Origin: an uncultured Gammaproteobacteria bacterium
GTDB taxonomy: Bacteria > Patescibacteriota > Patescibacteriia > UBA2591 > UBA6264
Length of the DNA: 64,000 nucleotides
NCBI GenBank assembly: GCA_964596735.1
Contig: CAZQVF010000002.1
Location: forward strand, 18,321-82,320
Reading direction: 5' to 3'
Shown here: piece by piece, positions 9,640-57,057 of the stretch
How the letters are laid out: the number at the start of each line of letters is the position of its first letter
Position numbering within the stretch: the stretch's first letter is position 1
The notes under the pieces: model-generated
Databases searched by the model: none
The model's input: the letters and a program-made list of their open reading frames with translations, nothing else
What the model was told of the DNA's origin: nothing
Translations under genes and position numbers: made by a program

Positions 9640-10029
9640 ATGGAAAAAAAATCATTTAAAATTTTACTTATTGAAGATGACCAGTTTATTCGCCGTATTT
9701 GTAAAAACGGCCTAGAACGAAGTGGTTTTAATGTAATAACAGCTGCGGAGGGGAAAGAAGGGATGAAAAAAGCAAAAGAACAAAATCCAGATCTAATTCT
9801 CTCTGACTTAGTCATGCCCCATAGAAATGGTTTTGAAACAATGGAACAAATAAAAAAAGATAAACAATTAAAAGATATTCCAATAATTATTCTTTCTAAT
9901 TTGGGTCAAGAATCAGATATTCAAAAAATAAAAGAGTTGGGAGCCGTCGACTATTTAATTAAGTCTGATTTTAAAATAAAAGAAGTGGTAGAGAAAATAA
10001 AATCCCATTTGGCTAAATTAGAAAAATAA
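9640..10029 (+). CDS. Stand-alone response-regulator receiver domain protein (CheY-like), paralog of 12865-13245
   Basis: Receiver signature: acidic pair EDD, phospho-acceptor in LILSDLVMP, conserved T/S and K (IIILSNLG ... YLIKS); 129 aa, no output domain. Confidence 0.85.
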   Translation: MEKKSFKILLIEDDQFIRRICKNGLERSGFNVITAAEGKEGMKKAKEQNPDLILSDLVMPHRNGFETMEQIKKDKQLKDIPIIILSNLGQESDIQKIKELGAVDYLIKSDFKIKEVVEKIKSHLAKLEK

Positions 10030-10044
10030 AAGGAGGAATAAAAT

Positions 10045-12423
10045 ATGTTTTTAAAATATTTTAAAAAAATAAAACTTAACCTAACAACTAAATTTGTTGT
10101 TTTGTTCTTGGCTATTTCTCTGGTTCCCTTGATTATTGCTGTTTATATCAGTTATGACAGTTCGCGAAAAGTTTTAGAAGAAGAAGCCGCTTATCAGCTT
10201 TATCAAATTTCTGATAATAAAGTCAATCAAATTGATAAATATTTTTCAGAAGCAAAAAAAGATGTCACTGCTTTAGCGCGCATGCCTGGTGTTATCGGTT
10301 CTGTGGAAAAATTTAATCAGGCTTTTCAAGAACATCAAGTAAATTCTTTAGAATATCTTGCCATTGATAAAGAATTAAGACCTGCTTTATTATATTTTCA
10401 AGAGGCATCTAAGTATGATGATCTCTTTTTAATTTCCTCTGAAGGAAATTTAACTTTTTCTACTAGTCAAAAACATGCTTTAGGAACAAATTATCTTACT
10501 GATTTAAAGGCCAATTCTGATTTAACACCCATTCTTAAAAGTACCATTGCTTTATTAGAAACAAAAATATCAACCTTTAAGCTGATTAAGGGCGGTAAGA
10601 TTAGAGCTTATATCACATCTCCTGTGTCTAATGAAGGAAAATTTATTGGGGTGATCGGAGTTCAAGTTAATAATGAAGGAATCTATAATCTCACTGAAGA
10701 TTATGCTGGTTTAGGAAAAACAGGAGAAATTATTTTAGTCGCCAGATTAGAAGATCAAATAATTTTTATTGCTCCATCAAGATATGACCCAGAAGGAGCA
10801 TTTAAAACAAATGTTGAATTAGGGGCTCATCAAGGGATTGCCCTTCAAAAGGCAGTGCAAAGAGAAAAAAGTTGGGGAATAACCACTGATTACAAAGGAG
10901 AAAAGGTTTTAGCTACTTGGCGCTATCTACCTAATTATCAATGGGGCTTGGTAGTAAAAATGAATGCCGATGAAATATTAAAAACAGCTAATGAGCTAAA
11001 AGACCGGTTAGTCGTTATTGGGACAGTACTCTTAATAATGATTGTTTTGATTACGGTTGTGATGGCTCGTTCTGTTTCCGGGCCAATTAAAAAATTAACT
11101 AAAGTAGCAGCGACAATTTCTAAGGGTAATCTTTTGGCTCGGGCAAGAATAAACACAAAAGATGAAATTGAAGAATTGGCTAATTCTTTTAATCAAATGA
11201 CTGACAATCTTTTAAAAACCCAGAGTAGATTAGAAGACAAAAGTGAACAATTAGCTAGAAATCTTGGGCAGATAGAAAGACAAAACAAAGAGCTGGAAGA
11301 AGAAAAGAATAAGGTTGGTCAGGAAAAAGATAAATTAAATACTATTCTTTATGGGATTGGTGATGGTGTCTTTGTTGTTGATCCAGATTACAAGATTATG
11401 ATTTTTAATCAAGAAGCAGAAGTTATTTCTGGGGTTACATCTAAGGAGGCTGTTGGCAAGAGATATGATCAGATTCTTAATTTTATTTCTGAAAGAAACG
11501 GAAAATCAAATGGTAGATTTGTTCGAGAAGCAATAAGCAGTGGGGAGATTAAAGAAACCAGTTTTGATACTGTTTTGGTTAAAAAAGGCAAGAAAAATAT
11601 TCCGGTTTCCGGAAGTGCCGCTCCCTTAAAAGATTCTGATGGTAATGTAATAAGTTGTGTGGTTGTTTTTCGTGATGTGTCCAAAGAAAGGGAAATTGAT
11701 CGGGCCAAAACTGAATTTGTTTCCCTGGCTTCTCATCAATTAAGAACACCCCTTTCTACTGTCAGCTGGTATGCAGAAATGCTTTTAGATGAAGACGTGG
11801 GGAAAATCAACAAAGACCAAGAAAAATATTTACAAGCGCTTTATGATGCTAATCACCGCATGGTGGAATTAGTCAATGCTCTTTTAAATGTTTCTCGGAT
11901 TGAATTAGGAACTTTTGCTATTGACCCTGAGCCGATTAAATTTCTTGAAATTGCTGATAGTGTTATAAAAGAACAAACTCCACAAATTAAAGAAAAAGGA
12001 TTAAAAATTGAAAAAAAATATGCTGTTGATTTGCCCATTATTAATGCTGACCCTCGACTTTTAAGAATTATTTTACAAAATCTGATTTCCAATGCTGTTA
12101 AATATACTCCGGAAAAGGGAAGTATTGTTATTGAAATTAGTAAAAAGGATTTAGATATTTTAGTTAAAGTAAAGGATACTGGTTATGGTATTCCCAAGAC
12201 TCAACAATCAAAAATATTTAATAAGCTGTTCCGGGCTGATAATATTTTGGCTAAAGATTGTGATGGCACTGGTCTTGGCCTTTATATTGTCAAGGCTGTG
12301 GTTGAGCAGTCAGGCGGCAAAATCTGGTTTGAATCTGAAGAAAATAAAGGAACCACTTTCTTTACCACTATTCCTTTAATAGGAATGAAAAAGAAAAAAG
12401 GAGTCAAAGTTTTAGCTAGTTAA
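10045..12423 (+). CDS. Sensor histidine kinase with a large (~280 aa) extracytoplasmic sensor domain (Cache-like), HAMP, PAS, HisKA and HATPase_c
   Basis: TM1 about aa 14-36 and TM2 about aa 318-338. H-box FVSLASHQLRTPL, N-box ISNAVKYTP, G-boxes DTGYGIP and GTGLGLYIVK. Confidence 0.85.
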   Translation: MFLKYFKKIKLNLTTKFVVLFLAISLVPLIIAVYISYDSSRKVLEEEAAYQLYQISDNKVNQIDKYFSEAKKDVTALARMPGVIGSVEKFNQAFQEHQVNSLEYLAIDKELRPALLYFQEASKYDDLFLISSEGNLTFSTSQKHALGTNYLTDLKANSDLTPILKSTIALLETKISTFKLIKGGKIRAYITSPVSNEGKFIGVIGVQVNNEGIYNLTEDYAGLGKTGEIILVARLEDQIIFIAPSRYDPEGAFKTNVELGAHQGIALQKAVQREKSWGITTDYKGEKVLATWRYLPNYQWGLVVKMNADEILKTANELKDRLVVIGTVLLIMIVLITVVMARSVSGPIKKLTKVAATISKGNLLARARINTKDEIEELANSFNQMTDNLLKTQSRLEDKSEQLARNLGQIERQNKELEEEKNKVGQEKDKLNTILYGIGDGVFVVDPDYKIMIFNQEAEVISGVTSKEAVGKRYDQILNFISERNGKSNGRFVREAISSGEIKETSFDTVLVKKGKKNIPVSGSAAPLKDSDGNVISCVVVFRDVSKEREIDRAKTEFVSLASHQLRTPLSTVSWYAEMLLDEDVGKINKDQEKYLQALYDANHRMVELVNALLNVSRIELGTFAIDPEPIKFLEIADSVIKEQTPQIKEKGLKIEKKYAVDLPIINADPRLLRIILQNLISNAVKYTPEKGSIVIEISKKDLDILVKVKDTGYGIPKTQQSKIFNKLFRADNILAKDCDGTGLGLYIVKAVVEQSGGKIWFESEENKGTTFFTTIPLIGMKKKKGVKVLAS

Positions 12424-12460
12424 TTGTATAAATAATAATGTAATTTAATTATATAAACAT

Positions 12461-12850
12461 ATGTCAACACAAAACAAAAAAGTCCTTATTGTTGAGGACG
12501 AAAAAGCTATGCGACAAGTTATTTTTGACAAATTCGAACGTGAAGGTTTCCAAACCTTTCAAGGAAAAGACGGAGAAGAAGGCTTAAAGATTGCTTTAAA
12601 AGAGCATCCTGATATTATTCTTTTAGACATTATCATGCCTCGAGTTGATGGTTTAAGTATGCTTAAAAAATTAAGAAAAGATAAGTGGGGAAAAAATGCG
12701 CAGGTGCTTCTTCTTACTAATTTAAATGATGCTGAGTATGTGGCCACGGCTATGGAAAGTGGAGTTTTTGATTTTTTAGTTAAAAGTGATTGGAAGCTTG
12801 ATGATTTGGTTGTAAGGGTCAAAGAAAAACTAGGAATTGTTCAAAAATAA
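12461..12850 (+). CDS. Stand-alone response-regulator receiver domain protein
   Basis: VLIVEDE ... ILLDIIMP ... LLLTNL ... FLVKS receiver pattern; 129 aa. Confidence 0.85.
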   Translation: MSTQNKKVLIVEDEKAMRQVIFDKFEREGFQTFQGKDGEEGLKIALKEHPDIILLDIIMPRVDGLSMLKKLRKDKWGKNAQVLLLTNLNDAEYVATAMESGVFDFLVKSDWKLDDLVVRVKEKLGIVQK

Positions 12851-12864
12851 TATAATTATTAAAT

Positions 12865-13245
12865 ATGGCTGAAGAAAAAAAAGTTAAAATTGCTTTAGTT
12901 GAGGATGAAAGGTTTTTATTAGGGGCGATGAGGGATAAACTGCAAAGAGAGGGCTTTGATGTTTATACAGCGACTAATGGTGAAATTGGATTGGAGGTAA
13001 TTAAGAAAGAAAAACCGGCTTTGATTTTACTAGATTTAATTATGCCGATAAAAAGTGGTTTTGATGTTTTAGAAGAATTGCAAAAAGATAGTGAATTAAA
13101 AAATATTCCTGTCATTATTCTTACTAATTTGGGTCAAGAATCAGATATTCAAAAAGGTAAAGAATTGGGAGCAGCAGACTATTTAATCAAAGCTGATTTT
13201 AAAATGAAAGAGGTTATTGCCAAGGTAAGGGAACATCTTAAATAA
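12865..13245 (+). CDS. Stand-alone response-regulator receiver domain protein, paralog of 9640-10029
   Basis: Receiver pattern. The C-terminal ~35 aa are nearly identical to the first receiver (NLGQESDIQK.KELGA.DYLIK.DFK.KEV), with ~85% identity over ~100 nt at the DNA level. Confidence 0.85.
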   Translation: MAEEKKVKIALVEDERFLLGAMRDKLQREGFDVYTATNGEIGLEVIKKEKPALILLDLIMPIKSGFDVLEELQKDSELKNIPVIILTNLGQESDIQKGKELGAADYLIKADFKMKEVIAKVREHLK

Positions 13246-13264: not shown

Positions 13265-14974
13265 ATGGAAATTCCTTTGGAAAAATTAAAAGAACTTTTG
13301 GTTTCACCAGGTCATATTCCTGAGAAGGAATTTAATGATTCTGTTAAAAAAGCTAAGGAAGAAAACACTTCTTTGCAAAATTTTTTAGTAGAAAAAGGTT
13401 TAATCTCAGATAAAAATTTAGGAAAGACTATTGCTGAACATTTTGATTATCACTTTGTTGATCTTAAAAAAGAAGAGATTTCTGAAGAAATTCTAAGAAT
13501 AGTTCCTGAATTAGTCGCTCGCATGCAAGAAGTGATTGCTTTTGATAGAGGCAAAGATGGTTTTAAAATAGCCATGGCCAATCCAAATAACTATGAGATG
13601 GTTAAATGGTTGGAAAAAAAGACCGGAGAGAAGGTCAGGGTATATTACGCTACTTCTTTTGGAATTCAAGATTCTTTAAAGTTTTATCGCAAAAAAATAA
13701 CAGAAGAATTTGATGATATTATTAAAACTCAGGTTAAAGAAGCAAAAAGATTAAATGTGAAAGCAGAAGACATTCCCATTATTAAAATTGTTGATACTTT
13801 AGTTGAATATGCTTATGAAAACGGGACCTCAGATATTCACATTGAACCATTAGATGAAAAAACTCAGGTTAGGTTTAGGATTGACGGAGTTTTACACAAT
13901 GTTGTCAGTTTACCAAGAGATATTCATGGTTTAGTTGTTACTCGCATTAAGGTTTTAAGTCGACTCCGCACAGATGAACATTTTGCCGCTCAAGATGGAA
14001 AATTTCAGGTTGAATTAGAAGCTTTAACTGGCTTTAGAAGAAAACAAGATAAATTTGATATCAGAGTTTCCATTGTCCCAGTCACTGATGGAGAAAAAAT
14101 AGTGATGCGACTTTTGTCAGAAAAAGCCCGTCGCTTTACCTTAAAAGGATTGGGTTTTCGTCCTCAAGATCATAAAAAAATTAAAAACACTATTAAAAAA
14201 CCTTATGGTATGGTTTTATCTACTGGACCAACCGGTTGTGGTAAAACCACTAGTCTTTATGCTATTTTAAAGATTTTAAATAAACCAAGTGTAAATATTA
14301 CTACAATTGAAGATCCTGTTGAATATGACGTTGAAGGAATTAGTCAGATTCAAGTTAACACTAAAACTGGTTTGACTTTTGCCAAGGGTTTACGTTCAAT
14401 TGTTAGACAAGATCCAGATATTATTATGGTTGGAGAAATTCGTGACGAAGAAACAGCTGATATTGCTATTAATTCAGCCATGACTGGTCACTTAGTTCTC
14501 TCTACAATGCATGCTAATACAGCGGCAACTAATTTAGTTCGTTTAATAGATATGGGCGTAGAACCGTTCTTGGTTGCTTCTTCAATTAATGTTGTTTTTG
14601 GCCAAAGGTTGGTAAGAAAAATCTGTGAAAAATGCCGATATAGCTATGAGGTTAATCGCCAAGAATTAAAAAAACTTAATCTTTCCTCAAAATTAATTGA
14701 TAAAATCCTTGGTAAAAAACAAAAAATCAGAGTTTATAAAGGTGAGGGTTGTCGAGCCTGTAATGAAAGCGGATATACTGGTCGAATCGGGATTTTTGAA
14801 ATTTTAGAAATTAGTGACACCCTTAAACAAATGATTATGCGTCGAGCCAATGCTGATGAACTTGAAGGTCAAGCCATTAAAGAAGGGATGCACTCAATGA
14901 TGGAAGATGGAATTGAAAAAGTACTTACGGGAATTACCACTATTGATGAGGTATTAAGGGTGACCAGAGAATAG
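13265..14974 (+). CDS. pilB: Type IV pilus assembly ATPase PilB (GspE family)
   Basis: N-terminal T2SS-E N domain, Walker A STGPTGCGKTT, Asp box, His box, tetracysteine zinc motif (CEKC ... CRAC). Confidence 0.9.
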   Translation: MEIPLEKLKELLVSPGHIPEKEFNDSVKKAKEENTSLQNFLVEKGLISDKNLGKTIAEHFDYHFVDLKKEEISEEILRIVPELVARMQEVIAFDRGKDGFKIAMANPNNYEMVKWLEKKTGEKVRVYYATSFGIQDSLKFYRKKITEEFDDIIKTQVKEAKRLNVKAEDIPIIKIVDTLVEYAYENGTSDIHIEPLDEKTQVRFRIDGVLHNVVSLPRDIHGLVVTRIKVLSRLRTDEHFAAQDGKFQVELEALTGFRRKQDKFDIRVSIVPVTDGEKIVMRLLSEKARRFTLKGLGFRPQDHKKIKNTIKKPYGMVLSTGPTGCGKTTSLYAILKILNKPSVNITTIEDPVEYDVEGISQIQVNTKTGLTFAKGLRSIVRQDPDIIMVGEIRDEETADIAINSAMTGHLVLSTMHANTAATNLVRLIDMGVEPFLVASSINVVFGQRLVRKICEKCRYSYEVNRQELKKLNLSSKLIDKILGKKQKIRVYKGEGCRACNESGYTGRIGIFEILEISDTLKQMIMRRANADELEGQAIKEGMHSMMEDGIEKVLTGITTIDEVLRVTRE

Positions 14975-14999: not shown

Positions 15000-16046
15000 A
15001 TGTTAAAAAAAATAAGTACTATTGATAAAGTTTTTCTTGCTAATAATATTTCTGTTATGATTAAGGCCGGCTTGCCTTTAAGAGAAGCGGTAGCTACATT
15101 GCAGGAACAAACTAAATCTAAAGTATTTAAAAAAATTCTTGAGGATATTATTAAACATCTTGATAATGGAGAATCTTTAGCAGATAGTTTAGCTAGACAT
15201 CCTCGAGATTTTAATCAGCTTTTTATTAATATTATTAGAGTAGGGGAAGCGAGTGGAACTTTAGAGGAAAACTTAAAATACCTGGCCATTCAATTAGAAA
15301 AAAGTTATGATCTTCATCGAAAAGTAAAAGGGGCGATGATTTATCCCTTACTTGTTTTGACTAGTACTTTTGTTTTAGGATCAGCTTTGGCTGTCTTTAT
15401 TTTGCCTAAACTTTTACCTCTTTTTAAAAGTTTTGATGTACAACTGCCCTTGCCTACAAAAGTCTTAATCTGGGTGACAGAGGCAATTCAAAATCATGGA
15501 CTGTTAATCTTTGGTGGTTTAATTGGTCTTATTATTTTATTTACCTTCCTTTCCCGTTTAAAACCAGTTAAAAAAATTAATCATAAAATCCTTTTAAGAA
15601 CCCCTTTATTTGGTCGAATCTCCCGCAGTAATAACCTAGCTCAATTCTGTCGTACCTTAGGGATCTTGTTAAAAAGTGGCATTCCTGTAGTACAAGGACT
15701 GGAAATTACTTCTCAAACCTTAAAAAACATGAGTTATAAAAAAGCTTTAGTTGAAACCTCTGATAAAGTACAAAGAGGAAAACCCATTAGTGATCATTTA
15801 AAAAATGAGGGCTTTCTTTTCCCAGTCACTGTCTCTAAGATGATTCAGGTAGGAGAAAAAACTGGCAGTTTAGAAGAAACCTTGCTTCATTTAGCAGGAT
15901 TTTATGAAAAAGAAATTGATAATGTGACTAAGAATCTTTCCAACATCTTAGAACCTATCTTATTAATCGTTATCGGTTTGGTGGTTGGTTTTATTGCCAT
16001 TGCTATTATTCTGCCGATTTACAAATTAACCGGCGGATTTAGATAA
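15000..16046 (+). CDS. pilC: Type IV pilus inner-membrane platform protein PilC (GspF family)
   Basis: Two GspF repeats, each with the conserved helical segment followed by TM helices. Confidence 0.85.
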   Translation: MLKKISTIDKVFLANNISVMIKAGLPLREAVATLQEQTKSKVFKKILEDIIKHLDNGESLADSLARHPRDFNQLFINIIRVGEASGTLEENLKYLAIQLEKSYDLHRKVKGAMIYPLLVLTSTFVLGSALAVFILPKLLPLFKSFDVQLPLPTKVLIWVTEAIQNHGLLIFGGLIGLIILFTFLSRLKPVKKINHKILLRTPLFGRISRSNNLAQFCRTLGILLKSGIPVVQGLEITSQTLKNMSYKKALVETSDKVQRGKPISDHLKNEGFLFPVTVSKMIQVGEKTGSLEETLLHLAGFYEKEIDNVTKNLSNILEPILLIVIGLVVGFIAIAIILPIYKLTGGFR

Positions 16047-16053
16047 AATAAGT

Positions 16054-16500
16054 ATGTTTAAAAAAGGCTTTACTCTTGTTGAGATAATACTAGCTATTAC
16101 TATTATTATTTTCCTTGCTGGCTTGGTTGTGCCCACGGGTATACGTTTTTATCAAACCCAACAATTAGACACAGCGACTGATGGAATTATTCAGGCTTTA
16201 AGAAGAGCCCAATTAAAAGCCATGTCTCAAGGAGATAATAATTTTGGTGTTTATGTTGGCTCTGGTCAAACCGGTCAATATTTTTTATTTACAGGTAATT
16301 CTTATGAAAATAGAACTGACGAAGAAATTTTCGGGGCTAGCAATAATATTTCGTTCAGTGGTGTTTCAGAAGTATTATTTTCTAAAACACAAGGTAAGCC
16401 AACTATTACTGGAACAGGTGACGATATTGTTTTAACCCAAGGTACAGAAACAAAAACAATTAACATTAATGAAGCGGGTAGAATTAATTTTGAATTATAA
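16054..16500 (+). CDS. Prepilin-like protein (type IV pilin / pseudopilin), class III signal peptide
   Basis: N-terminus MFKKGFTLVEIILAITIII. The G|FTLVE cleavage and N-methylation motif is followed by a hydrophobic helix. Confidence 0.7.
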   Translation: MFKKGFTLVEIILAITIIIFLAGLVVPTGIRFYQTQQLDTATDGIIQALRRAQLKAMSQGDNNFGVYVGSGQTGQYFLFTGNSYENRTDEEIFGASNNISFSGVSEVLFSKTQGKPTITGTGDDIVLTQGTETKTININEAGRINFEL

Positions 16501-16503
16501 GTT

Positions 16504-19326
16504 ATGAAACATCAAAAAGCTCAAAGCTTAATTGAATTATTAATCGCCCTTGGCGTTTTTGTTTTGGTTGTCAGTTCGATTAATTTTTTAAGTCTTGATA
16601 CATATATAGCTGATCGAGCTGGTGGAGAAAGAACCCAAGCCACTTTTTTGGCTAAAGAGGGGATTGAAGCAAGTAAATCTATTAGCAACAACAGCTGGGG
16701 TGATTTAATCTTGGGCAATCATGGAATTAGTATCTCTGATGAACATTGGGTTTTTCAAGGAACGGCCGATGATGTTAGCGATCAATTAACTCAAGGAGAG
16801 CGGGTTATTGTTGTTGAACAAGACGAAGCTTGTAATCTAAATTGTAAAAAAATTACCTCTCAGGTGACCTGGGATTTAACAGACACTCGTCCCCAAACCG
16901 TAACCTTGGTCACTTATTTAACTAATTTGTTTAGTCTCAATTGGACCCAGACGCTTTTAGCAGACTTTGATTTAGGAAAGAGAAACAGTGTTCAGACCAC
17001 TGAGGTGGGTGATGGGGAGATAAAGTTATCCTTGATCGGCGACTGGAACAATGCCTCTGTTGTTGCCGACTTTGATACAGATGCTAATGGTGATGTCCGG
17101 GATATTTTTATTAATAATAATATTGCCTATGTTATTACCATGAATAATGGTGGTGGCGGTGAAGAAGAATTTTTTGTTTTAGATATTTCTGATATTAGTA
17201 ATGGAAATATTAATTTGTTAGGATCAACTGATTTGGGAACAGAATTAGGTAATGATGCTCGTAGTTTTCATGTTTCTGAAGATTATGCCTATATTGCCAG
17301 TGATGATAATAATGCCGAATTAATGATTGTTCGTTTAAGTGATTATACTGTAACTAATCAGTACAATGTTCCAGACAATCTTAATGGCCTTGATGTTTTT
17401 GTTGTTGATGATATTGCTTATTTAGTGACTAATGTAAATAATTCTGAAGAATTCTATGTCTTGGATGTTTCTAATCCTGAAGAAGAGATTACTCTGTTAA
17501 ATTCATTAGAAGTTGACGCCACTGTTAATAAAATTGATGTTGTGGGTAATTATGCTTATTTAGCCACTGAAGGTAATAATAAAGAATTATCAGTTGTTCG
17601 TTTAACAGATAATACTGAAGTAAATACTTTTGATATTACTGGTAATGGTGATATGACTTCTGTTCAGGTTATTGGCGATATCGCTTATATGGGGAGGGAA
17701 AGCAGTGGTGACTCAGAGTTTTATGCCTTGGATGTTTCTAACCCAGAAGGAGTAATTACTGAACTTGATTCAATTGATTTAGAAGGCGATGATGTTGAAA
17801 CAATTTCTATTTATAATGATTTGGCTTATTTGGGGACTGATAATGCAGACAAAGAAGTGGTCGTCATTGATTTAAATACTTTTATAGAAACAGCTTCTGT
17901 TGATTTAATCGGCTCAAATTATGCTTATGCGATTTGGTTTCAAGGCGCTCATATTTATGCCGGAACAACAAATAATGATTATGAAGTTCAAGTGATTCAA
18001 AGTGGCCAAGGCGGTTGGGAAGTCCCAGAAATGATTGGTAGCATTGATCTTCCCGGGAACGAGGATGCTAAAGATGTTTTTGTTTTAGGTGATTATGCTT
18101 ACATCGGGACTAAACCAGCTAGACACGGTGACAATTTTTTCATCATTGACATTTCAGACCCGGAAAATCCTGATCCAAGAGGTTCTCTTGATATAGGAAA
18201 GGATATTCATGGTGTTTATATCTCTGGCAACTATGCTTATCTGTCCTTGCATGATGATGATGAAGGATTAAGAATTGTTGATATTACCAATAAGGACAAT
18301 CCTATTAAACTTGATTATTTTAATGCCCCAGGAGACAAGTGTTTTAAAGATGTTTCTGTTTTAGATGATTATGCCTATATCGTAGGAAAAGAGGCAAGAA
18401 ACGATCCAGAATTTTTCATCATTGATGTTGAAGAGCCGGACGATTTAGAAGACGAGGCTGAAGGAAGTTTAGAGCTGGACACTGAGGCTTATGCCATATA
18501 TGTCTCAGGAGATTATGCTTATTTAGCCACTAGTGATAATGATAAAGAATTAATGGTGGTTGATATTTCAGATGAGGAAGAACCAGAGATGGTTGGTTCA
18601 TACAATGCTGATAGCGATGCTAATGCGAGGGATATTTTTATTGAAAATGACACTGCTTATTTAGTGACTAAAGAAAACTCTTCTGCAGGGATAAATCCTG
18701 AATTCTATATTTTAGATATTAGCACACCAACGGTTCCTAGTTTAATAGGTTCTTTAGACATAGATGACAACGTTGATACTCTCACTGTTTCAGGAGATTA
18801 TGCTTATTTGGGAACAGATGAGAATGATGCTGGGCTTCAAATAATCGATATTAGTGATTTAGCCAATCCTTTGCTTTATAGTACTTTTGATGTTGGTGAT
18901 GATGTTAAGGGTATTGATTTTGATGAGGGTCATGTTTATTTGGCCACTAAAAATGGTGATTTAGAGGCGCCAATTATTGGTCCAGGCGGATTACCAACTG
19001 ATTATTCTCAATGGGGCATTTTCACTTCTTCTTCTTATGATTCTGGGGAAACAAATACTTCATGGAATAATATCTTATGGTCAGAAAGTGGGACCGGTAC
19101 TTTAAAATTCCAGGTGCGCACTGCCGATACTGAAGAAAATCTTTCTTCGGCTACCTGGGTTGGATCAGACGGGACTAATTCAACTTATTATACTTTTTCT
19201 GAACAAAACATTATTATTGATCCTGGAGCCAGTGGTAAACAATGGGCTGAATATCGAGTATTTTTTACTGGTGACAGTACAGACAGTCCTATCTTAGAAA
19301 GTATAACTATTATTTATAGCAACTAA
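16504..19326 (+). CDS. Giant (940 aa) pilin-like protein: prepilin-type N-terminus followed by about 14 LVIVD-type beta-propeller repeats and a C-terminal beta-sandwich-like domain
   Basis: N-terminus MKHQKAQSLIELLIALGVFVLVV. Repeated ~40-55 aa units of the form V.GDYAYLAT..ND.EL.VVDISDP..P. Very acidic (D/E-rich) composition. Confidence 0.75.
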   Translation: MKHQKAQSLIELLIALGVFVLVVSSINFLSLDTYIADRAGGERTQATFLAKEGIEASKSISNNSWGDLILGNHGISISDEHWVFQGTADDVSDQLTQGERVIVVEQDEACNLNCKKITSQVTWDLTDTRPQTVTLVTYLTNLFSLNWTQTLLADFDLGKRNSVQTTEVGDGEIKLSLIGDWNNASVVADFDTDANGDVRDIFINNNIAYVITMNNGGGGEEEFFVLDISDISNGNINLLGSTDLGTELGNDARSFHVSEDYAYIASDDNNAELMIVRLSDYTVTNQYNVPDNLNGLDVFVVDDIAYLVTNVNNSEEFYVLDVSNPEEEITLLNSLEVDATVNKIDVVGNYAYLATEGNNKELSVVRLTDNTEVNTFDITGNGDMTSVQVIGDIAYMGRESSGDSEFYALDVSNPEGVITELDSIDLEGDDVETISIYNDLAYLGTDNADKEVVVIDLNTFIETASVDLIGSNYAYAIWFQGAHIYAGTTNNDYEVQVIQSGQGGWEVPEMIGSIDLPGNEDAKDVFVLGDYAYIGTKPARHGDNFFIIDISDPENPDPRGSLDIGKDIHGVYISGNYAYLSLHDDDEGLRIVDITNKDNPIKLDYFNAPGDKCFKDVSVLDDYAYIVGKEARNDPEFFIIDVEEPDDLEDEAEGSLELDTEAYAIYVSGDYAYLATSDNDKELMVVDISDEEEPEMVGSYNADSDANARDIFIENDTAYLVTKENSSAGINPEFYILDISTPTVPSLIGSLDIDDNVDTLTVSGDYAYLGTDENDAGLQIIDISDLANPLLYSTFDVGDDVKGIDFDEGHVYLATKNGDLEAPIIGPGGLPTDYSQWGIFTSSSYDSGETNTSWNNILWSESGTGTLKFQVRTADTEENLSSATWVGSDGTNSTYYTFSEQNIIIDPGASGKQWAEYRVFFTGDSTDSPILESITIIYSN

Positions 19327-19838
19327 TGATTTACAAAAAGAAAAAAAGTTTTACGTTAATTGAACTGCTTATTTATCTTGGCATAGTGGCCGGGATTTTA
19401 GTTGTGGCTGGTGCTTTTACCTGGAGTATTATTAAAGGAAGCGCAAAAGGCGCTTGTGTTCGAGAGGTGCAACAAAATGGACGTTTGGCCATGGAAGTAA
19501 TTACTCGAGAGATAAAGGCCGCTTCTGGAATTAATAGTCCTTTAGCTGGAGAATCAGCCGAGACCTTGTCTTTGATTATGTCTGACAGTGGTTTAAATCC
19601 AACTATATTTGAATTATCAAATGATCAGATTCTTTTAAGTCAGGGGGTGGATGGACCCTATACTTTAACTACTGATCAGGTTTTGGTTTCTAATCTTGAT
19701 TTTACTAATCTTTCCTACGCAGATACATCTGGAACAGTCAGAATAGAAATGACCTTAGATTATAATAATCTTGGTTCTCAAACCGCTTATGAGGCTTCGA
19801 TTGATTTAAGTACCACGGTTTCTTTAACTGAGGAATAA
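19326..19838 (+). CDS. Prepilin-like minor pilin/pseudopilin
   Basis: N-terminus KSFTLIELLIYLGIVAGILVV (class III signal peptide). Confidence 0.65.
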   Translation: MIYKKKKSFTLIELLIYLGIVAGILVVAGAFTWSIIKGSAKGACVREVQQNGRLAMEVITREIKAASGINSPLAGESAETLSLIMSDSGLNPTIFELSNDQILLSQGVDGPYTLTTDQVLVSNLDFTNLSYADTSGTVRIEMTLDYNNLGSQTAYEASIDLSTTVSLTEE

Positions 19839-19841
19839 AAC

Positions 19842-20237
19842 ATGAAACATCAACAAGCATATATTGCCTTAATTACCATTTTAATCATCTCTGCCGTAAC
19901 CTTATTAATTGCGGCTAGTGCTGGTCTTTTTGGTATTTCTGAAACAGACATGGGTCTAATCGAAGATCAATCTACTCAGTCTTATTATTTGGCTAATGCC
20001 TGTGCTGAATATGCCTTGGAAAGGTTAAAGAATAATGTAAATTATGCTGGTGACGAAACCTTAGATATTGATGATGGCAGTTGCTATATTTATTTACCAG
20101 AAGGAAGTGGCAATGAGGATAGAATAATTAAAGCAACCGGCACTCTTGCTAATCAGACTAGAAAGGTTAAAATTATAATAGAAGAGATTAATCCTTTAAT
20201 GGTCATTAGCTCTTGGCAAGAGGTTTCTGAATTTTAG
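19842..20237 (+). CDS. Putative minor pilin (PilX-like) with atypical N-terminal hydrophobic helix
   Basis: MKHQQAYIALITILIISAVTLLIAAS lacks the canonical G-F-T-L-I-E but sits within the pilin gene run. Confidence 0.4.
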   Translation: MKHQQAYIALITILIISAVTLLIAASAGLFGISETDMGLIEDQSTQSYYLANACAEYALERLKNNVNYAGDETLDIDDGSCYIYLPEGSGNEDRIIKATGTLANQTRKVKIIIEEINPLMVISSWQEVSEF

Positions 20238-20254: not shown

Positions 20255-22012
20255 ATGGGTAAATTTTCAAAAACAGGTTTTGGCTTAGATATCTCTGATT
20301 TTTCAATCGAGGTTCTTGAGCTTAGTTCAAAAGTAAAAGTAAAAACTTTTTCTAGAATAACCCTAGAGCCAGGCATAATTGAAAATGGTCTTATTCTTGA
20401 TAAGAAAAAATTAACTAAAAAACTCAAAGAACTTGTTGCTAAAACAAAAATAAAAACAAGTCAGGTTGTTTTATCTTTACCAGAATCAAAGGTTTTTATT
20501 CATGTTTTTAAGGTTCCTAAGGGATTAAAAAAGACTAATTTAAAAGATGCCATTGCCTTTGAGGCGCCTAAAGTCATTCCTTTAAACCAGGAAGAAATAT
20601 ATTGGGACTGTCAGACAATTTCCTCTCCAGCAAAATCAGCTCAACAATCTGTTTTATACATCGCTGTTTTTAAAAATATTATTGATACCTATATTGAAGT
20701 TTTAACCTTGGCTGAGTTAAAACCAGTTGTTTTTGAGATAGAATCATTGGCTTTGGCTCGGGCTTTATTGTTAGAATTAAAACCAGTTAACAGTTTGATG
20801 ATTGTTGATTTAGGGGCTCGAACAACTAATATTAGTATTTTTGGTAAAAACAAACAATTAAGATGGTCTTCAACAGTTTCTGTTGCTGGCAAGCATTTTA
20901 CTCAGGCAATTGAGGAAAAATTAAAAAAATCTACAGAACAGGCAGAAAAATTAAAAAGAGATAAGGGCTTGTCAGATAAAAGCATTGTTAAGCTTATTTT
21001 AGAGAAAGAACTTAAACCGATTATTGAGGAAATAAAAAATATTCTTGATTTTTATAATGAACCAGTAGACGAAATTATTTTAAGCGGGGGTTCAGCTCAA
21101 ATACCAGAAATTGTCTCTTATCTTTCTACTAAACTTGAGAAAAAGGTTAGTCTGGGCAAATCAGTAATTACCAAACAATTAAAAGGAACTTCTATTCTTT
21201 ATAACACGGTTATTGGCTTAGCCCTTAAGTCGCGTCAGGGGGCCAAAAAAGGAGAAATTAATTTATTACCTCAAAAAATTAAAACCAAAAAATCTTTTAT
21301 TAATAAAGAAACGCAGGAAAGCAGGCTTTTTCAAATATTTGGTTATGTTTTTCCCTTAGCCTCTATAGTCTTTCTTGGTTGGGTGATTATTAATTACACA
21401 CCCCAACAACCACGTTTCTCAAATATTGCCCAGAAAATTTTTATAAACGAAGAGGTTGTTCCTGAAGAAAAAGAATCAGAACCAGTTAAAGCGATTAAAG
21501 AAGAAACAATAAGTGAAGAAATGGTGGTTGAACAAGAACCAGTTTCTGAAGAAGTAGTAGAAGAAATGGTGGTTGAACAAAAAAAAACCACCCAGATTAT
21601 TATTAATCAAGGGATTAGCCGTTTAAATGTAAGAAAAGGTCCTGGATCTGAATATGATATTGTGACCAAGGTTTATCCTGGAGAGAGTTATCCACTATTG
21701 CAAGAACAAGGGGAATGGTATAAAATAAGGGTAGATGAGGATACAGAGGGATGGCTTTCTGCCACTTATACAACTTTACAAGAAAAGACCACTTTATTAG
21801 AAGAGAAAATTGGTCAAATTACTGTCAAAGAAAGTGTTTTAAATGGATTAAATCTTCGTGATGGTCCAGGAACAAATTATACTATTATTACCAAGGTTTA
21901 TCCTGGAACAAATTATCTACTATTGCAAGAACAAGGAGAATGGTATAAAATAAGGGTAGATGAGGATACAGAGGGATGGCTTTCTGCCACTTATGTTTTA
22001 AAATTAGAATAA
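20255..22012 (+). CDS. pilM: Fusion protein: PilM (actin-like pilus assembly ATPase fold), a PilN-like TM segment, an acidic linker and two tandem SH3b (bacterial SH3) domains
   Basis: N-terminal ~330 aa has the PilM/FtsA-like fold and its position in the locus. There is a TM helix at about aa 360-380. Two C-terminal ~60-aa repeats (RLNVRKGPGSEYDIVTKVYPGESYPLLQEQGEWYKIRVDEDTEGWLSATY) are typical of SH3_3. Confidence 0.7.
   Translation: MGKFSKTGFGLDISDFSIEVLELSSKVKVKTFSRITLEPGIIENGLILDKKKLTKKLKELVAKTKIKTSQVVLSLPESKVFIHVFKVPKGLKKTNLKDAIAFEAPKVIPLNQEEIYWDCQTISSPAKSAQQSVLYIAVFKNIIDTYIEVLTLAELKPVVFEIESLALARALLLELKPVNSLMIVDLGARTTNISIFGKNKQLRWSSTVSVAGKHFTQAIEEKLKKSTEQAEKLKRDKGLSDKSIVKLILEKELKPIIEEIKNILDFYNEPVDEIILSGGSAQIPEIVSYLSTKLEKKVSLGKSVITKQLKGTSILYNTVIGLALKSRQGAKKGEINLLPQKIKTKKSFINKETQESRLFQIFGYVFPLASIVFLGWVIINYTPQQPRFSNIAQKIFINEEVVPEEKESEPVKAIKEETISEEMVVEQEPVSEEVVEEMVVEQKKTTQIIINQGISRLNVRKGPGSEYDIVTKVYPGESYPLLQEQGEWYKIRVDEDTEGWLSATYTTLQEKTTLLEEKIGQITVKESVLNGLNLRDGPGTNYTIITKVYPGTNYLLLQEQGEWYKIRVDEDTEGWLSATYVLKLE
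21665..21994 (+). repeat. Intragenic direct repeat: about 105 nt at 21665-21769 repeated at 21890-21994. The core 78 nt is 76/78 identical and encodes the duplicated SH3b domain
   Basis: Read directly: ACCAAGGTTTATCCTGGA...CTATTGCAAGAACAAGG(G/A)GAATGGTATAAAATAAGGGTAGATGAGGATACAGAGGGATGGCTTTCTGCCACTTAT occurs twice. Confidence 0.85.
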
Positions 22013-22037: not shown

Positions 22038-22499
22038 ATGATTAGATCACGTAAAGGTTTTACTCTCATTGAAATTCTCATTGCCGTCGGGATTATTGCA
22101 ATTTTAGCCGCTATCGTTATTATTGCTATTAACCCAGCTCGTCAGTTTCAAAGAGCGAGAGATTCTCAACGATGGAGTGATGTTAACGCTATTCTTAATG
22201 GTGTTCACCAAAGAATGGTTGACAACAAAGGAAGTTTTGCTGAAGGCACCACCTGTGATGCCCTGCCAGCTACGGTCATGTCTATTACTAGTACAGCTGG
22301 AGCAAACAATGTTGATCTCTGTGATTGTTTGGTAACAACTTATTTAGCCGCTCTTCCTTTTGACCCTTCAACTTCTGGAGCAGGTTTTACTGATTGCAAT
22401 GGCTATACAACTGGTTATACTATTATGCAGGCCGCCACGGGTAGAATTACCGTTGCCGCTCCTGGAGATGAGTTAGATACGATTACAGTAACCCGGTAA
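22038..22499 (+). CDS. pilA: Type IV major pilin (PilA-like), with Cys residues for a C-terminal disulfide
   Basis: N-terminus MIRSRKGFTLIEILIAVGIIAILAAI. About 150 aa. Cys-containing C-terminal region and a strong terminator immediately downstream. Confidence 0.75.
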   Translation: MIRSRKGFTLIEILIAVGIIAILAAIVIIAINPARQFQRARDSQRWSDVNAILNGVHQRMVDNKGSFAEGTTCDALPATVMSITSTAGANNVDLCDCLVTTYLAALPFDPSTSGAGFTDCNGYTTGYTIMQAATGRITVAAPGDELDTITVTR

Positions 22500-41976: not shown

Positions 41977-43245
41977 TTATTTTGTTTTCCAGTGGTCCAA
42001 GGCTTGTTTTAGTTCAATATGGTTATGAGAATAAAACTTTAAAGGAATTCCTTTGGTGGCCGCTTCTACGGCTTGAACAGCGGCTCTGGCTCCGGCCCCA
42101 CTTCCTTGAGGATGTCCGTGCAAACCACCGCCAAAATTAATAACTAGGTTTGTTCCTAAAATTTCAACTAATTTATAGGCTAAGCCGGGATGAAGTCCGC
42201 CTGAAGCAATGGGCAAAACAGGTTTAAGCTTGCCCCAGTTTTCTCTTAGTTTATTAAATCCTCGCCAGTCTTCTTTTAATAATTCATTTACTTGAACAAC
42301 TTCTTTTTCTTCTCCTTCCATTTTTCCCACCACTGTGCCTGTATGAAACTGATCAATACCAGCTAAGCGAGCTAAATTGGCTACGACTAAAAAGGAAATG
42401 CCATGTTTTTTATTTCTAGTAAAAGCAGAATGACCAGCTCTATGCCCGTGAATAATCAAGCCCAAGTCTTGGTTTCTCAAAGACTGGACTCCGGCCCAAC
42501 CAGTAGTAACAATATCAACCATAACACATCTGCCCCCTAATCTTTTAACTAATTTTGCTCTTTGCAGCATTAGCTCTGTTGGCGCGGTCACATTAAATAC
42601 ATAAATCTTTTTTTGTTTTGTTTCTTTTTCTACTTGTTTTTTAAGGGCTAAAACCTTTTTGACCCTGTCTTCAAATTTATTAAAACTCAGGTCGGTTAAA
42701 TTTTCATCATCTTTGATTAAATCAACTCCGTTTTTAAATATTTCTGCGGCTAATTTAGCGTTTTGAGTTGAAGTTAAGCCTATTTTGGGTTTTATAATAC
42801 AGCCAACCAAGGGCCTTCTTTTTATTCCGGTAATCCTTCTTATTCCATTAATCCCCCATTTTGGTCCTGGATATTGGTTAATATATTTTTCAGGAAATTC
42901 AATGTCTTGCAAACGTAAATTCTTAACTAATTTCATGCTAAAAATATTTCCCCCAATGCTAGAAAGAAGCTGAGGAATACTATTTGGTTCAAACAAGGCT
43001 AAGGGGTAAGCAATTTTAAAAATACCTGTTCTGGTGTTAACTGAAAAAACCTTTGCCGCTAATTTATTAAAGACTTTGTCTGATAAGGTTTTTACTTTTG
43101 TCCAGGTGCCAATTGAAGATTCTTCAGCTACTTTTTGGGCTAATTTATTTAAAGATAACTTAGATTCCCCATAATAAGTGACGATAATCTCTTCTTGGGG
43201 TTTTGGCTTATATTTTAGCCTTAAATAGGTTGATTTTTTTTTCAT
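41977..43245 (-). CDS. rbcL: Ribulose-1,5-bisphosphate carboxylase/oxygenase large subunit, form II/III-like (archaeal/CPR type)
   Basis: Carbamylated Lys region GVDLIKDDENL, GCIIKPKIGLT, IIHGHRAGHSAF, FGGGLHGHPQGSGAGARA. 422 aa. No small subunit gene adjacent. Confidence 0.9.
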   Translation of the reverse strand: MKKKSTYLRLKYKPKPQEEIIVTYYGESKLSLNKLAQKVAEESSIGTWTKVKTLSDKVFNKLAAKVFSVNTRTGIFKIAYPLALFEPNSIPQLLSSIGGNIFSMKLVKNLRLQDIEFPEKYINQYPGPKWGINGIRRITGIKRRPLVGCIIKPKIGLTSTQNAKLAAEIFKNGVDLIKDDENLTDLSFNKFEDRVKKVLALKKQVEKETKQKKIYVFNVTAPTELMLQRAKLVKRLGGRCVMVDIVTTGWAGVQSLRNQDLGLIIHGHRAGHSAFTRNKKHGISFLVVANLARLAGIDQFHTGTVVGKMEGEEKEVVQVNELLKEDWRGFNKLRENWGKLKPVLPIASGGLHPGLAYKLVEILGTNLVINFGGGLHGHPQGSGAGARAAVQAVEAATKGIPLKFYSHNHIELKQALDHWKTK

Positions 43246-43246
43246 A

Positions 43247-43717
43247 TTAACTTATTTTTTTAATTATTTTATCAATAATATTGCTAGTGGAAAATATTTT
43301 TTTATTTTTATCTGGAAACTCTTTTAATTCCCAATAGGGCCGATCATATTTTTTCGTCTTTCTTTTTTTAACAATAGCAATTATATCTGGCTTTAAATAC
43401 TCTAAAACAGACAAGGATTCTTCCATAGATCTGGATTTGTCTATGTAGACGTAATCTATATTTTTAATTCCATTAATCACTTCGGCTCTTTGCTTTGCAC
43501 TGTTAATTGGTTTTTTTTCACCTTTTTCTTGTTTCGTTAAAAAACTTGATTGAATAAAAATGATGACAATATCAGCAAATTTTTTAAATTGTCTGATTGA
43601 ATAAATGTGTCCGGGGTGAATAATGTCAAAAACTCCTTTTTTTATTAAAACTTTTTTATTTTGTTTTTGGGCCTGATCTATGATTTGTTTTAATTTCTTT
43701 TTTTTAGAAATAATCAT
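43247..43717 (-). CDS. Cytidylyltransferase-like nucleotidyltransferase (HxGH class) embedded between rbcL and the R15P isomerase
   Basis: GVFDIIHPGHIYSI motif; about 150 aa; second member of this fold in the window. Confidence 0.55.
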   Translation of the reverse strand: MIISKKKKLKQIIDQAQKQNKKVLIKKGVFDIIHPGHIYSIRQFKKFADIVIIFIQSSFLTKQEKGEKKPINSAKQRAEVINGIKNIDYVYIDKSRSMEESLSVLEYLKPDIIAIVKKRKTKKYDRPYWELKEFPDKNKKIFSTSNIIDKIIKKIS

Positions 43718-44673
43718 AAAAACGGATATATCTTTTTCAAATGAGTTTTAATTTGGCTTGGTTTAATAACCCCTGCTTCACAAATAATGCCAGTAATATA
43801 TTTCCTGGGAATACGATCAAAGGCAAAATTAATAATCTTAAGACCTTTAGGCGCATTTGGCCAAAGTTCTTTTGGCGAACGTCTTTCTATTTTAATCCAT
43901 GATTTAGCATAAAATTTTAAAAGCGTGGTCGCAATGTATAAAGGGACTTTTTCTCTATAAGCAATAGATCCAATGCCAAAGCTACCAATTTTATTAATTA
44001 CTGAGCCATCTGGCAAAAGAGCATCCGCTCCCAGAATAATCTTATCCATCATTAAATTTTTACCTGAATGATGGGAAATTAAAAAACCGGCTGAAGAGTC
44101 AGCGACCATGGTTGTTGGAATTTTTGCTTGAAGTAATTTTTTAGAAGTAATTCTGCCCTGGAAAAGAGGTCTTGTTTCTGTGTTATAAACCTTAAATTTC
44201 TTTTTATTCTTTTTTGCTTTAATTAAGATTTGTTCTACTAACCAAGAATGGCAATGAGTTAAAATGTCGTCATCTTTGGTTTTAATTATTTTTCGTCCAT
44301 TTTTAATAGTTAAATCAGCCGCTTTTTTCATCATTTTTAAAAAATCATCGGCTGCCTTTTTTGCTTCATTTTTTGCTTCCACCACGTTTTTCGGTTTGAC
44401 CTGGCTTAATTGGGAAAATATATATTTGACCCCATTTTGAGCCATGGGTTCTGTGGGTCGAGCTGAAAGCAAAAGATCAGCTGCTTTTTTAAAATCTCTT
44501 TTCCAATTACCTACATTTTTAGCTTTAATCCTTAAACTATAGGTTTTTAAGGCCTTGATTGTGGTTCTAGCCACCGCTGTTGCCCCTTGAACCTCTAGTG
44601 ATTTAATGTTTTTAAAGGTTTGCTTTATTGTTTTCATATAATTATATAATAAAGCTTCTCTTATTTTTGTCAA
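43714..44673 (-). CDS. Ribose-1,5-bisphosphate isomerase (eIF-2B alpha/beta/delta-like, e2b2 family)
   Basis: eIF-2B-like fold with LGADALLPDGSVINKIGSFGIGSIA segment; 4-bp overlap with the upstream gene. Confidence 0.75.
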   Translation of the reverse strand: MTKIREALLYNYMKTIKQTFKNIKSLEVQGATAVARTTIKALKTYSLRIKAKNVGNWKRDFKKAADLLLSARPTEPMAQNGVKYIFSQLSQVKPKNVVEAKNEAKKAADDFLKMMKKAADLTIKNGRKIIKTKDDDILTHCHSWLVEQILIKAKKNKKKFKVYNTETRPLFQGRITSKKLLQAKIPTTMVADSSAGFLISHHSGKNLMMDKIILGADALLPDGSVINKIGSFGIGSIAYREKVPLYIATTLLKFYAKSWIKIERRSPKELWPNAPKGLKIINFAFDRIPRKYITGIICEAGVIKPSQIKTHLKKIYPFL

Positions 44674-56372: not shown

Positions 56373-56888
56373 TTATTTTTTAATACTTGATAAAATGTAA
56401 ACAAAATTCTTTAAGTTGCCCTTTAAGGCATAAACAAGGTTATTAACCGGCCCCTTGATTGTGCCGACGAATTGGGCGAGTAGTTCTGCCTTACTTGGTA
56501 ATTTTGACAATCTTTTCACCATTTCCATATTAACAAATTCTTTTTCAAAAATACCGCCCTGGATCTTCAACTCCCCATGTTCTTTGGCAAAATTAGCCAC
56601 TAATTTAGCCGGGGCTACTTCTGATTCAAAGCCAAAAATTAGACCAACTCCCCCTTGAATTTCATCTATGTTAATATTATCCAAGCCCATTTCTTTTAAG
56701 CTTAACTTTAAAAGGGTTTTTTTAGTAACCAAATATTGGCACTCTTTTTTTTCTAACAGCCTTCTTAGTTGATTAATTTCATTAGCCTTAAGTCCGTAAT
56801 AATCAATAAAGACTAAGCTCTTCATTTTACTTAATTGATCTTTAAGGTCTTTAATAGTTTGTTGTTTTTGTTCTTTTGTCTTTGCCAT
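56373..56888 (-). CDS. rplJ: 50S ribosomal protein L10
   Basis: N-terminus MAKTKEQKQQTIKDLKDQL and the gene order rplJ-rplL. Confidence 0.85.
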   Translation of the reverse strand: MAKTKEQKQQTIKDLKDQLSKMKSLVFIDYYGLKANEINQLRRLLEKKECQYLVTKKTLLKLSLKEMGLDNINIDEIQGGVGLIFGFESEVAPAKLVANFAKEHGELKIQGGIFEKEFVNMEMVKRLSKLPSKAELLAQFVGTIKGPVNNLVYALKGNLKNFVYILSSIKK

Positions 56889-56889
56889 A

Positions 56890-57057
56890 AATTTTAATTA
56901 AAAATAGTCTGTGGCCACAGACTAAAAAATACTAAATAAACACTGATGTCTGGGCAGGAAATTAAGTGTTTTTAAACACACCCGCTGTCTGTGACACTTA
57001 TAATTTAGTATATATTAATATACTTTATTCGTCAATTTATTTTATCCACAGATTTGC
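56890..57057 (-). promoter_or_regulatory. Structured 5' leader of the rplJ-rplL operon (candidate L10 autoregulatory leader) with a perfect 9-bp palindrome AGTCTGTGG/CCACAGACT
   Basis: 168-nt untranslated region with several hairpins immediately upstream of rplJ. Confidence 0.35.

Follow-up and report, generated by a model that had tools for sequence, protein, structure and literature searches.

An intact open reading frame (ORF), running from ATG to stop at 20255-22012 on the forward strand of the window (the whole 64-kb stretch of DNA analysed here), encodes a 585-residue protein that probably joins three functions in one genuine Patescibacteria type IV pilus protein: PilM, the PilM-binding peptide and transmembrane (TM) helix of PilN, and an external pair of bacterial SH3 (SH3b) domains that are likely to bind the cell's own wall and whose tandem coding repeat has been homogenised by gene conversion. 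Proteins that combine PilM, this PilN clamp and TM helix, and SH3b domains, in loci without PilN or PilO, are widespread in public data, and no description of a PilM-SH3b fusion was found in a literature search that paired PilM and SH3 or SH3b with Patescibacteria or peptidoglycan.

The make-up of the protein was established by domain searches and an AlphaFold2 (AF2) model made from 34 homologues, with a mean predicted local distance difference test score (pLDDT) of 81.9. The cytoplasmic PilM actin-like (ASKHA) domain occupies residues 10-326 (20282-21232; all features of the gene lie on the forward strand), where Pfam PilM_2 (PF11104) matches with E = 7.5 × 10−41 and 140.6 bits (cutoff 27) and NCBIfam TIGR01175 (pilM) scores 149.7 bits, above its curated threshold of 133. 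The INLLP motif at residues 335-339 (21257-21271) corresponds to the N-terminal PilM-binding peptide of PilN, here in cis, and is followed by a single TM helix (residues 357-381; 21323-21397), which is helical in the AF2 model and has a hydropathy peak of 2.26 across residues 361-379. A disordered acidic linker (residues 382-442; 21398-21580), with 17 D or E residues against 5 K or R, leads to SH3b domain 1 (residues 441-513; 21575-21793) and SH3b domain 2 (residues 518-585; 21806-22009). Pfam SH3_3 (PF08239) matches both of these stretches (E = 3.2 × 10−27; 94.9 bits, cutoff 27) and PF06347 also matches domain 2; the protein also has weaker Pfam matches to SH3_4, SH3_16, FtsA and MreB, as expected for these folds. 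The pLDDT is above 90 for residues 10-320, 76 for residues 331-340, below 50 for residues 383-442 and about 90 in both all-beta domains. The linker differs in length and sequence among relatives and contains the EEMVVEQ repeats that had been read from the DNA (21515-21538 and 21560-21583 match at 23 of 24 positions). The sequence-only reading of this stretch had proposed a PilM domain, a PilN-like membrane segment, an acidic linker and two SH3b domains in this order, and Pfam, NCBIfam and AF2 bear it out, with the domain search supporting both the PilM and the SH3b assignment. A frameshift or fusion artefact is ruled out because the architecture recurs in dozens of independent assemblies.

The fold of the N-terminal domain is that of PilM. 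When the model was compared with the PDB using Foldseek, the top match was 5eou_B, an engineered Pseudomonas aeruginosa PilM:PilN1-12 fusion (E = 2.3 × 10−26, target-normalised TM-score (TMt) 0.76); the PilM structures 5eou, 2ych and 3jc8 together had TMt values of 0.75-0.82 (0.82 for 2ych_A), with E values of 2 × 10−26 to 2 × 10−24 for 5EOU and 2YCH, and ranked above FtsA and MreB structures. The HMMER alignment to the 5EOU chimera places '...glalksrqgakkgeINLLP' of the window protein on '...glalrsfdssgmarINLLP' with equal spacing. The sequence GEINLLP (residues 333-339) lies between the PilM domain and the TM helix, and N336 and L337 are conserved in at least 90% of the 34 homologues. Stand-alone PilN proteins of Patescibacteria likewise start with MINLLP and continue into a TM helix. 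On account of the motif match to 5EOU and 2YCH, we infer that this PilM is anchored to the membrane through its own tail.

The term PilM-PilN fusion, as the sequence-only reading had it, holds for the INLLP clamp and the TM helix and fails for the PilN domain itself. Pfam PilN (PF05137) has no match to the 585-residue protein even at E ≤ 1, and a profile of five Patescibacteria PilN proteins aligns to its C-terminal region over profile positions 2-40 only, at 3.6 bits. The same profile matches the C termini of two other proteins, P0080 and P0088, over positions 2-180 (E = 8 × 10−19 and 1 × 10−22), and by this measure complete PilM-PilN fusions also occur in Patescibacteria. Judged by these profile matches, the PilN share of the window protein consists of the N-terminal PilM-binding peptide and the TM helix, and the PilN periplasmic domain is absent. 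Neither the Pfam nor the NCBIfam matches of the protein included a GspL-family model. Elsewhere in the Patescibacteria, plain PilM proteins of some 360 residues precede a MINLLP ORF of about 185 residues, which a PilO-like ORF follows in turn (five listed loci: L044, L054, L069, L073 and L086), with the pilN-like ORF overlapping the pilM stop codon in three of the five. Because of this overlap, and because the spacing in the window protein is that of a direct fusion of a PilM end to a PilN start, the natural fusion looks like the product of a lost stop codon between pilM and pilN. We also considered the 'INILP' near residue 330 of plain PilM proteins as a PilN peptide, and rejected it as part of an internal PilM motif, NPWINILP, that precedes the last helix.

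Related loci hold further variants of the PilM C terminus. Some PilM proteins end in a GINLLP or GINLFP tail with no TM helix (loci L024, L031, L036, L039 and L040; proteins P0040, P0042 and P0043); a pilin gene follows in all five loci. Each of these would be a PilM with the PilN peptide alone, and they may be real, self-capped soluble PilM proteins or artefacts of gene calling or frameshift. Others have PilM, INLLP and a TM helix with almost nothing outside (L016, L023, L030 and L037), or PilM and a TM helix with long extracytoplasmic non-SH3 tails of 240-370 residues (L033, L056, L057, L065 and L067). The outside module of fused PilM proteins appears to be exchangeable among Patescibacteria.

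The SH3b domains are predicted to be extracytoplasmic, since a single TM helix follows a cytoplasmic domain and K and R residues are in excess before the helix (five on its N-terminal side, two on its C-terminal side). The closest solved sequence is 2KRS ('probable enterotoxin') for SH3b 1 and 2KQ8 (the SH3 domain of a cell wall hydrolase) for SH3b 2. The closest relatives outside PilM proteins are 27-35% identical; where the nearest of them have an additional Pfam domain, it is most often NlpC/P60, with amidase_2 and glucosaminidase present as well, and SH3_3 is frequently in tandem. In the full-length Foldseek search, the SH3 region, which the model shows as two all-beta domains, had one structural match among those listed, a YrvJ model at rank 36. 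A search with the C-terminal 261 residues returned only SH3b proteins of the wall-hydrolase type and found no stand-alone INLLP-TM-SH3b protein, which is a weak negative given that its word index also missed known PilM fusions. Judged by their relatives in wall hydrolases, the SH3b domains most likely bind the cell's own wall and fix or position the base of the pilus. Other sequences hold similar domains. Proteins of about 1150-1480 residues (P0151, P0172, P0192, P0199, P0213, P0230, P0250 and P0285) each have 7-13 stretches that match the SH3b region of the window protein, and have no PilM domain. P0122, a 196-residue ENA protein on a 1.8-kb contig, combines Glycos_transf_2 with an SH3_3 region that is 60% identical to the window SH3b; since L002 and L005 have a glycosyltransferase gene a short way downstream, P0122 may derive from a related locus as a chimeric or rearranged piece.

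The two SH3b domains are encoded by a repeat that aligns without gaps over 147 nt (21623-21769 with 21848-21994) at 86% identity, its starts spaced by 225 nt, or 75 codons in frame. Within it, 21692-21769 and 21917-21994 are identical at 76 of 78 positions, exactly the figure reported from the letters alone. The 105-bp duplication described alongside it turned out to be the well-conserved 3' part of a 225-bp unit (21665-21769 versus 21890-21994, 99 of 105 identical). The longest perfect run is 57 nt (21713-21769; P = 3 × 10−4, permutation with the 21 mismatches placed randomly over the 147 sites), and it lies at the end of a putative gene-conversion tract that spans 21688-21769 in copy 1 and 21913-21994 in copy 2 (80 of 82 identical).

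To place this identity in time, we compared the window with independently assembled two-copy relatives (L002, L006, L003/L004 and L005). The PilM parts of three other lineages are 85-95% identical to that of the window, and the linker between the SH3b copies is conserved across those lineages. Over the 5' 69 nt of the SH3b core, in the four closest lineages, copy 1 is 81-91% identical to copy 1 of other lineages and copy 2 is 86-93% identical to copy 2, compared with 62-71% between the copies within a genome. Over the 3' 81 nt, the two copies of each genome share 95-99% identity; L003 is 86-91% identical to the other three genomes, which are 93-98% identical among themselves. Sites diagnostic of copy or of genome number eight and zero, respectively, in the 5' part and zero and six in the 3' part (P = 3 × 10−4, Fisher's exact test); two of the six genome-diagnostic sites are the synonymous changes ACA>ACT and CTT>CTC, shared by both copies of L003. 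The fact that the 5' halves group by copy across lineages places the duplication before the lineages split. The pattern as a whole, by copy at the 5' end and by genome at the 3' end, indicates that gene conversion has repeatedly homogenised a 3' tract of 80-105 nt in an old 225-bp tandem duplication; of the two causes that the sequence-only reading had offered for the 76 of 78 identity, ongoing gene conversion is therefore upheld and a very recent duplication is not. The limits of the conversion tract vary by lineage, that of L003 reaching further 5'. L005, a more distant lineage, shows the opposite pattern (86% identity in the 5' part, 74% in the 3' part), and its copy 1 clusters with the one copy present in its sister P0009, which points to an independent duplication. 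In a separate clade (L015, L019, L021 and L029) the tandem is older, its copies sharing 42-53% protein identity, and the copies of L012 are 39% identical. These comparisons put the number of independent origins of tandem SH3b in the family at at least three.

The same genome stands in public assemblies with one or two SH3b copies. L001 (JGI 3300009374, a contig of 266 kb) matches the window at 100% identity over 10255-32012 (about 21.5 kb), minus exactly one 225-bp unit; all eight 'mismatches' of its second BLAST segment fall in the repeat overlap, and its one-copy junction lies inside the 57-nt identical run. Five contigs from NCBI, JGI and ENA assemblies encode the exact 585-residue protein, and two of these contigs, L007 and L008, match the window at 100% identity over 3.7 and 2.9 kb with the whole repeat included; two-copy contigs occur in JGI 3300009320 and SAMN11854494. 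The 5' half unique to copy 2, together with the linker, has orthologues in related lineages. The two-copy gene is real. The sequence-only reading had named assembly reads with a single copy as a result that would count against it; one assembly, L001, does have a single copy, set against five contigs and four related lineages with two. Elsewhere in the family, the two-copy clade encloses two genes whose one SH3b copy joins a copy-1 head to a copy-2 tail, those of L009 (a MEGAHIT k141 assembly; 100 of 100 bootstraps) and P0005 (89 of 100 bootstraps); P0006 is basal (13 of 100 bootstraps) and may keep the ancestral state. Because of these nested genes, loss of an SH3b copy by recombination over the homogenised tract is likely to be real and recurrent. 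The repeat is a clear small case of concerted evolution, and the coexistence of one-copy and two-copy versions of one genome is a practical warning to users of public assemblies.

Two other accounts of the repeat can be weighed against these data. The second SH3b copy might be a very recent duplication, with its high 3' identity (over 78-105 nt) reflecting a lack of time; we consider this very improbable, given that the 5' 69 nt are much closer to the same copy in three other lineages (81-93%) than to the other copy in the same genome (62-71%), that the inter-copy linker is conserved, and that all copy-diagnostic sites fall in the 5' half. Equally remote is the idea that the tandem was expanded during assembly and that the true gene has one copy. 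The identity of L001 to the window apart from one absent unit would fit such an expansion, but the protein is exact on five contigs, both of those checked are identical across the repeat, and the 5' half and linker of copy 2 are orthologous to copy 2 of four independently assembled lineages, a sequence that an artefact cannot create.

The fusion of PilM to SH3b recurs widely. In a first homologue search, 35 of 121 clusters had PilM, a TM helix and SH3b, six of the 35 with two SH3b domains; among the best 150 representatives at 50% identity, drawn from a library of 1.84 billion proteins, at least 83 clusters had PilM and SH3b, seven of them with two copies. At the genomic level, the SH3b fusion was found at 23 of 77 species-level loci. 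A PilN-like ORF lies within 1.5 kb downstream at none of these 23 loci, compared with 21 of 44 plain PilM loci, and a pilin gene is the downstream neighbour at 17 of the 23. Related loci in species-representative genomes whose record title names a specific group are all from Patescibacteria (Candidate Phyla Radiation, CPR), for example Buchananbacteria, Falkowbacteria and Nealsonbacteria. Named public records of the fusion proteins read only 'pilus assembly protein PilM', and annotation pipelines therefore miss the fusion. Metagenome-assembled genome records titled 'uncultured Gammaproteobacteria bacterium' (L010, L011, L012, L015, L021 and other CAY* and CAZ* records) also hold Patescibacteria-type pilus loci, with proteins at most 60% identical to that of the window; their titles look like placeholder or wrong taxonomy.

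In the window, which has a G+C content of about 33%, the gene sits in a tight cluster on the same strand, with pilB, pilC and four minor pilin genes upstream and a pilin gene downstream. The cluster comprises pilB (13265-14974, forward strand), a T2SSE ATPase with an MshEN domain; pilC (15000-16046, forward strand), a T2SSF platform protein; four prepilin-like minor pilin genes with N_methyl motifs (16054-20237, forward strand; 148, 940, 170 and 131 residues), for which the NCBIfam matches include ComGD, GspH and, weakly for the 131-residue protein, GspK; and, 25 nt past the stop codon of the fusion gene, the pilin gene (22038-22499, forward strand; N_methyl E = 1.6 × 10−8; TIGR02532). None of the ORFs tested in the 64-kb window matched the PilN or PilO Pfam families, and no GspM- or PilO-like gene was found in the locus. 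We considered the upstream 131-residue ORF as a cryptic PilO or PilN and rejected it, as it is too short, has a weakly GspK-like N terminus and is well explained as minor pilin number four. Genes for Ddl and two M23 peptidases lie nearby, so the organism makes peptidoglycan. The 940-residue minor pilin (16504-19326, forward strand) has a prepilin N-terminal methylation motif followed by LVIVD beta-propeller modules (Pfam LVIVD, E = 1.5 × 10−39; NCBIfam choice-of-anchor B), is conserved at 939-940 residues in close relatives and is a possible tip adhesin. Directly upstream of pilB (9640-13245, forward strand) lies a 792-residue dCache-HAMP-PAS histidine kinase with stand-alone receiver-domain proteins, three in all (129, 129 and 126 residues), on its flanks, a possible source of sensory input for the pilus cluster; L001 shares this arrangement, and in L002, too, pilB is preceded by the last receiver gene.

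These features suggest how such a pilus base might work. By homology, the PilM domain would form a ring that engages the PilB/PilC motor and platform. The INLLP peptide and TM helix would anchor this ring to the membrane in cis, and the flexible acidic linker of about 60 residues would let the two external SH3b domains reach the wall. Binding there would brace or position the PilM ring, and via the ring PilB and PilC, relative to the wall, at loci where the PilN periplasmic domain, PilO and a secretin are not present. The homogenised tract would permit unequal recombination, with the number of SH3b domains shifting between one and two in the clade and possibly in the population represented by the window. 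We therefore put forward, as a tentative possibility, that a large part of the Patescibacteria has discarded the extracytoplasmic PilN/PilO layer and tied an SH3b wall module to the PilM ring as a one-protein alignment complex, in which the conversion tract acts as a switch of SH3b number within populations and tunes the strength of anchoring. If this is true, the periplasmic domains of PilN and PilO are dispensable for pilus assembly, and the function that has been kept is to couple the motor mechanically to the wall. The sequence-only reading had suggested that the fusion stands in place of a separate PilO/PilP/PilQ set. This agrees with the lack of an adjoining PilN or PilO here and at the 23 related loci; the mention of PilP and PilQ is not specific to this gene, given that a survey of CPR protein families, which lists PilM, PilN, PilO, PilB, PilT and PilC, did not find PilQ (PMC6744442).

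Several points weigh against the account of the protein given here. Peptidoglycan binding is predicted from nearest relatives in wall hydrolases, and SH3_3 domains have varied ligands. The SH3b domains may instead bind another partner, such as pilins, an S-layer or wall polymer, or host-derived material, and so replace an extracytoplasmic protein-protein role of PilN and PilO. We regard this as rather unlikely; the periplasmic domains of PilN and PilO, which elsewhere interact with pilins (PMC4471445), are absent at these loci, making it plausible that something stands in for them, and the 5' halves of the SH3b copies, encoding the N-terminal strands and first loop, stay copy-specific across lineages, a hint of two specificities. 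However, the closest SH3b relatives outside PilM sit in peptidoglycan hydrolases, and a long disordered acidic linker suits reaching the wall over forming a fixed complex at the membrane. Docking of the INLLP peptide on PilM in cis is likewise a prediction, from motif identity and a moderate pLDDT of 76. The locus counts are skewed towards relatives of the window protein, whose own alignment supplied the search patterns. One-copy L001 could be a real allele or an assembly collapse, as unequal recombination and collapse of a de Bruijn graph yield the same product. PilN and PilO could also be encoded elsewhere in the genome, of which the data cover 64 kb; Saccharibacteria carry several pilus loci, with two PilMNO sets in different loci (PMC11623550), and many Patescibacteria have separate PilM, PilN and PilO (the listed plain loci; PMC6744442). 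On this view the fusion would serve as an accessory PilM in one of a number of pilus systems, canonical PilN and PilO would be encoded elsewhere, and SH3b would be only a localisation tag that replaces nothing. This explanation also seems doubtful to us: the cluster is otherwise self-contained, with pilB, pilC, four minor pilins and a pilin, the protein's own PilN peptide and TM helix would fill the PilN-binding site, and PilN stands beside the fusion at none of the 23 related loci.

Two further features of the window lie apart from the pilus cluster. A RuBisCO large-chain homologue (422 residues) is encoded near an IF-2B family protein (319 residues), with a 156-residue ORF between them (41977-44673, reverse strand); this pairing is typical of a nucleotide-salvage pathway reported for CPR bacteria. 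An Rfam scan of the window gave a single match, which exceeds the gathering score at 48.3 bits: a ribosomal protein L10 leader (RF00557) at 56890-57012 on the reverse strand, upstream of an rplJ-like ORF (56373-56888).

Type IV pili are considered key to the way in which ultrasmall Patescibacteria attach to and live on host cells, and the construction of a pilus base without an outer membrane has been little studied. Reviews leave open whether PilMNO(P) is needed for filament assembly or only stabilises the motor (PMC10191384), and loci that carry the fusion without PilN and PilO are a natural test of the purpose of the PilN/PilO layer. The window protein resembles known systems in part. It shares with the structures of PilM bound to a PilN peptide (2YCH from Thermus thermophilus; 5EOU) its fold, an INLLP motif that aligns residue for residue and the spacing from the last helix to INLLP, but it is a natural fusion that runs on into a TM helix and an extracytoplasmic module, whereas PilM in its canonical form is soluble, stands apart from PilN and binds it in trans. 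Like GspL, itself a PilM-PilN fusion in a type IV filament machine, it has an actin-like domain in the cytoplasm, one TM helix and an extracytoplasmic domain; unlike GspL, its cytoplasmic domain scores as PilM, its outer part is SH3b and not the ferredoxin-like PilN/GspL domain, and its locus has no GspM or PilO partner. The complete fusions P0080 and P0088, from the same bacterial group, also have PilM, INLLP and a TM helix in one ORF, but they retain the PilN periplasmic domain where the window protein has SH3b. The wall-targeting SH3_3 domains of peptidoglycan hydrolases (2KRS and 2KQ8; proteins with NlpC/P60, amidase or glucosaminidase domains) belong to the same Pfam family and are often in tandem, although the window protein has no catalytic domain and is tethered by its TM helix and linker, not secreted. 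The fusion suggests how a high-force pilus could be braced in a cell without a secretin, and offers a hypothesis for Patescibacteria pili. In concept it comes close to FimV (LysM), TsaP (LysM) and the AMIN domains of PilQ, the peptidoglycan-binding accessories of type IV pili (cited in PMC4471445 and PMC5285504), in which a wall-binding module on the pilus machine serves anchoring or positioning; those proteins act at the secretin and outer membrane of diderm bacteria, whereas here SH3b is covalently joined to the PilM ring in a lineage without a secretin.

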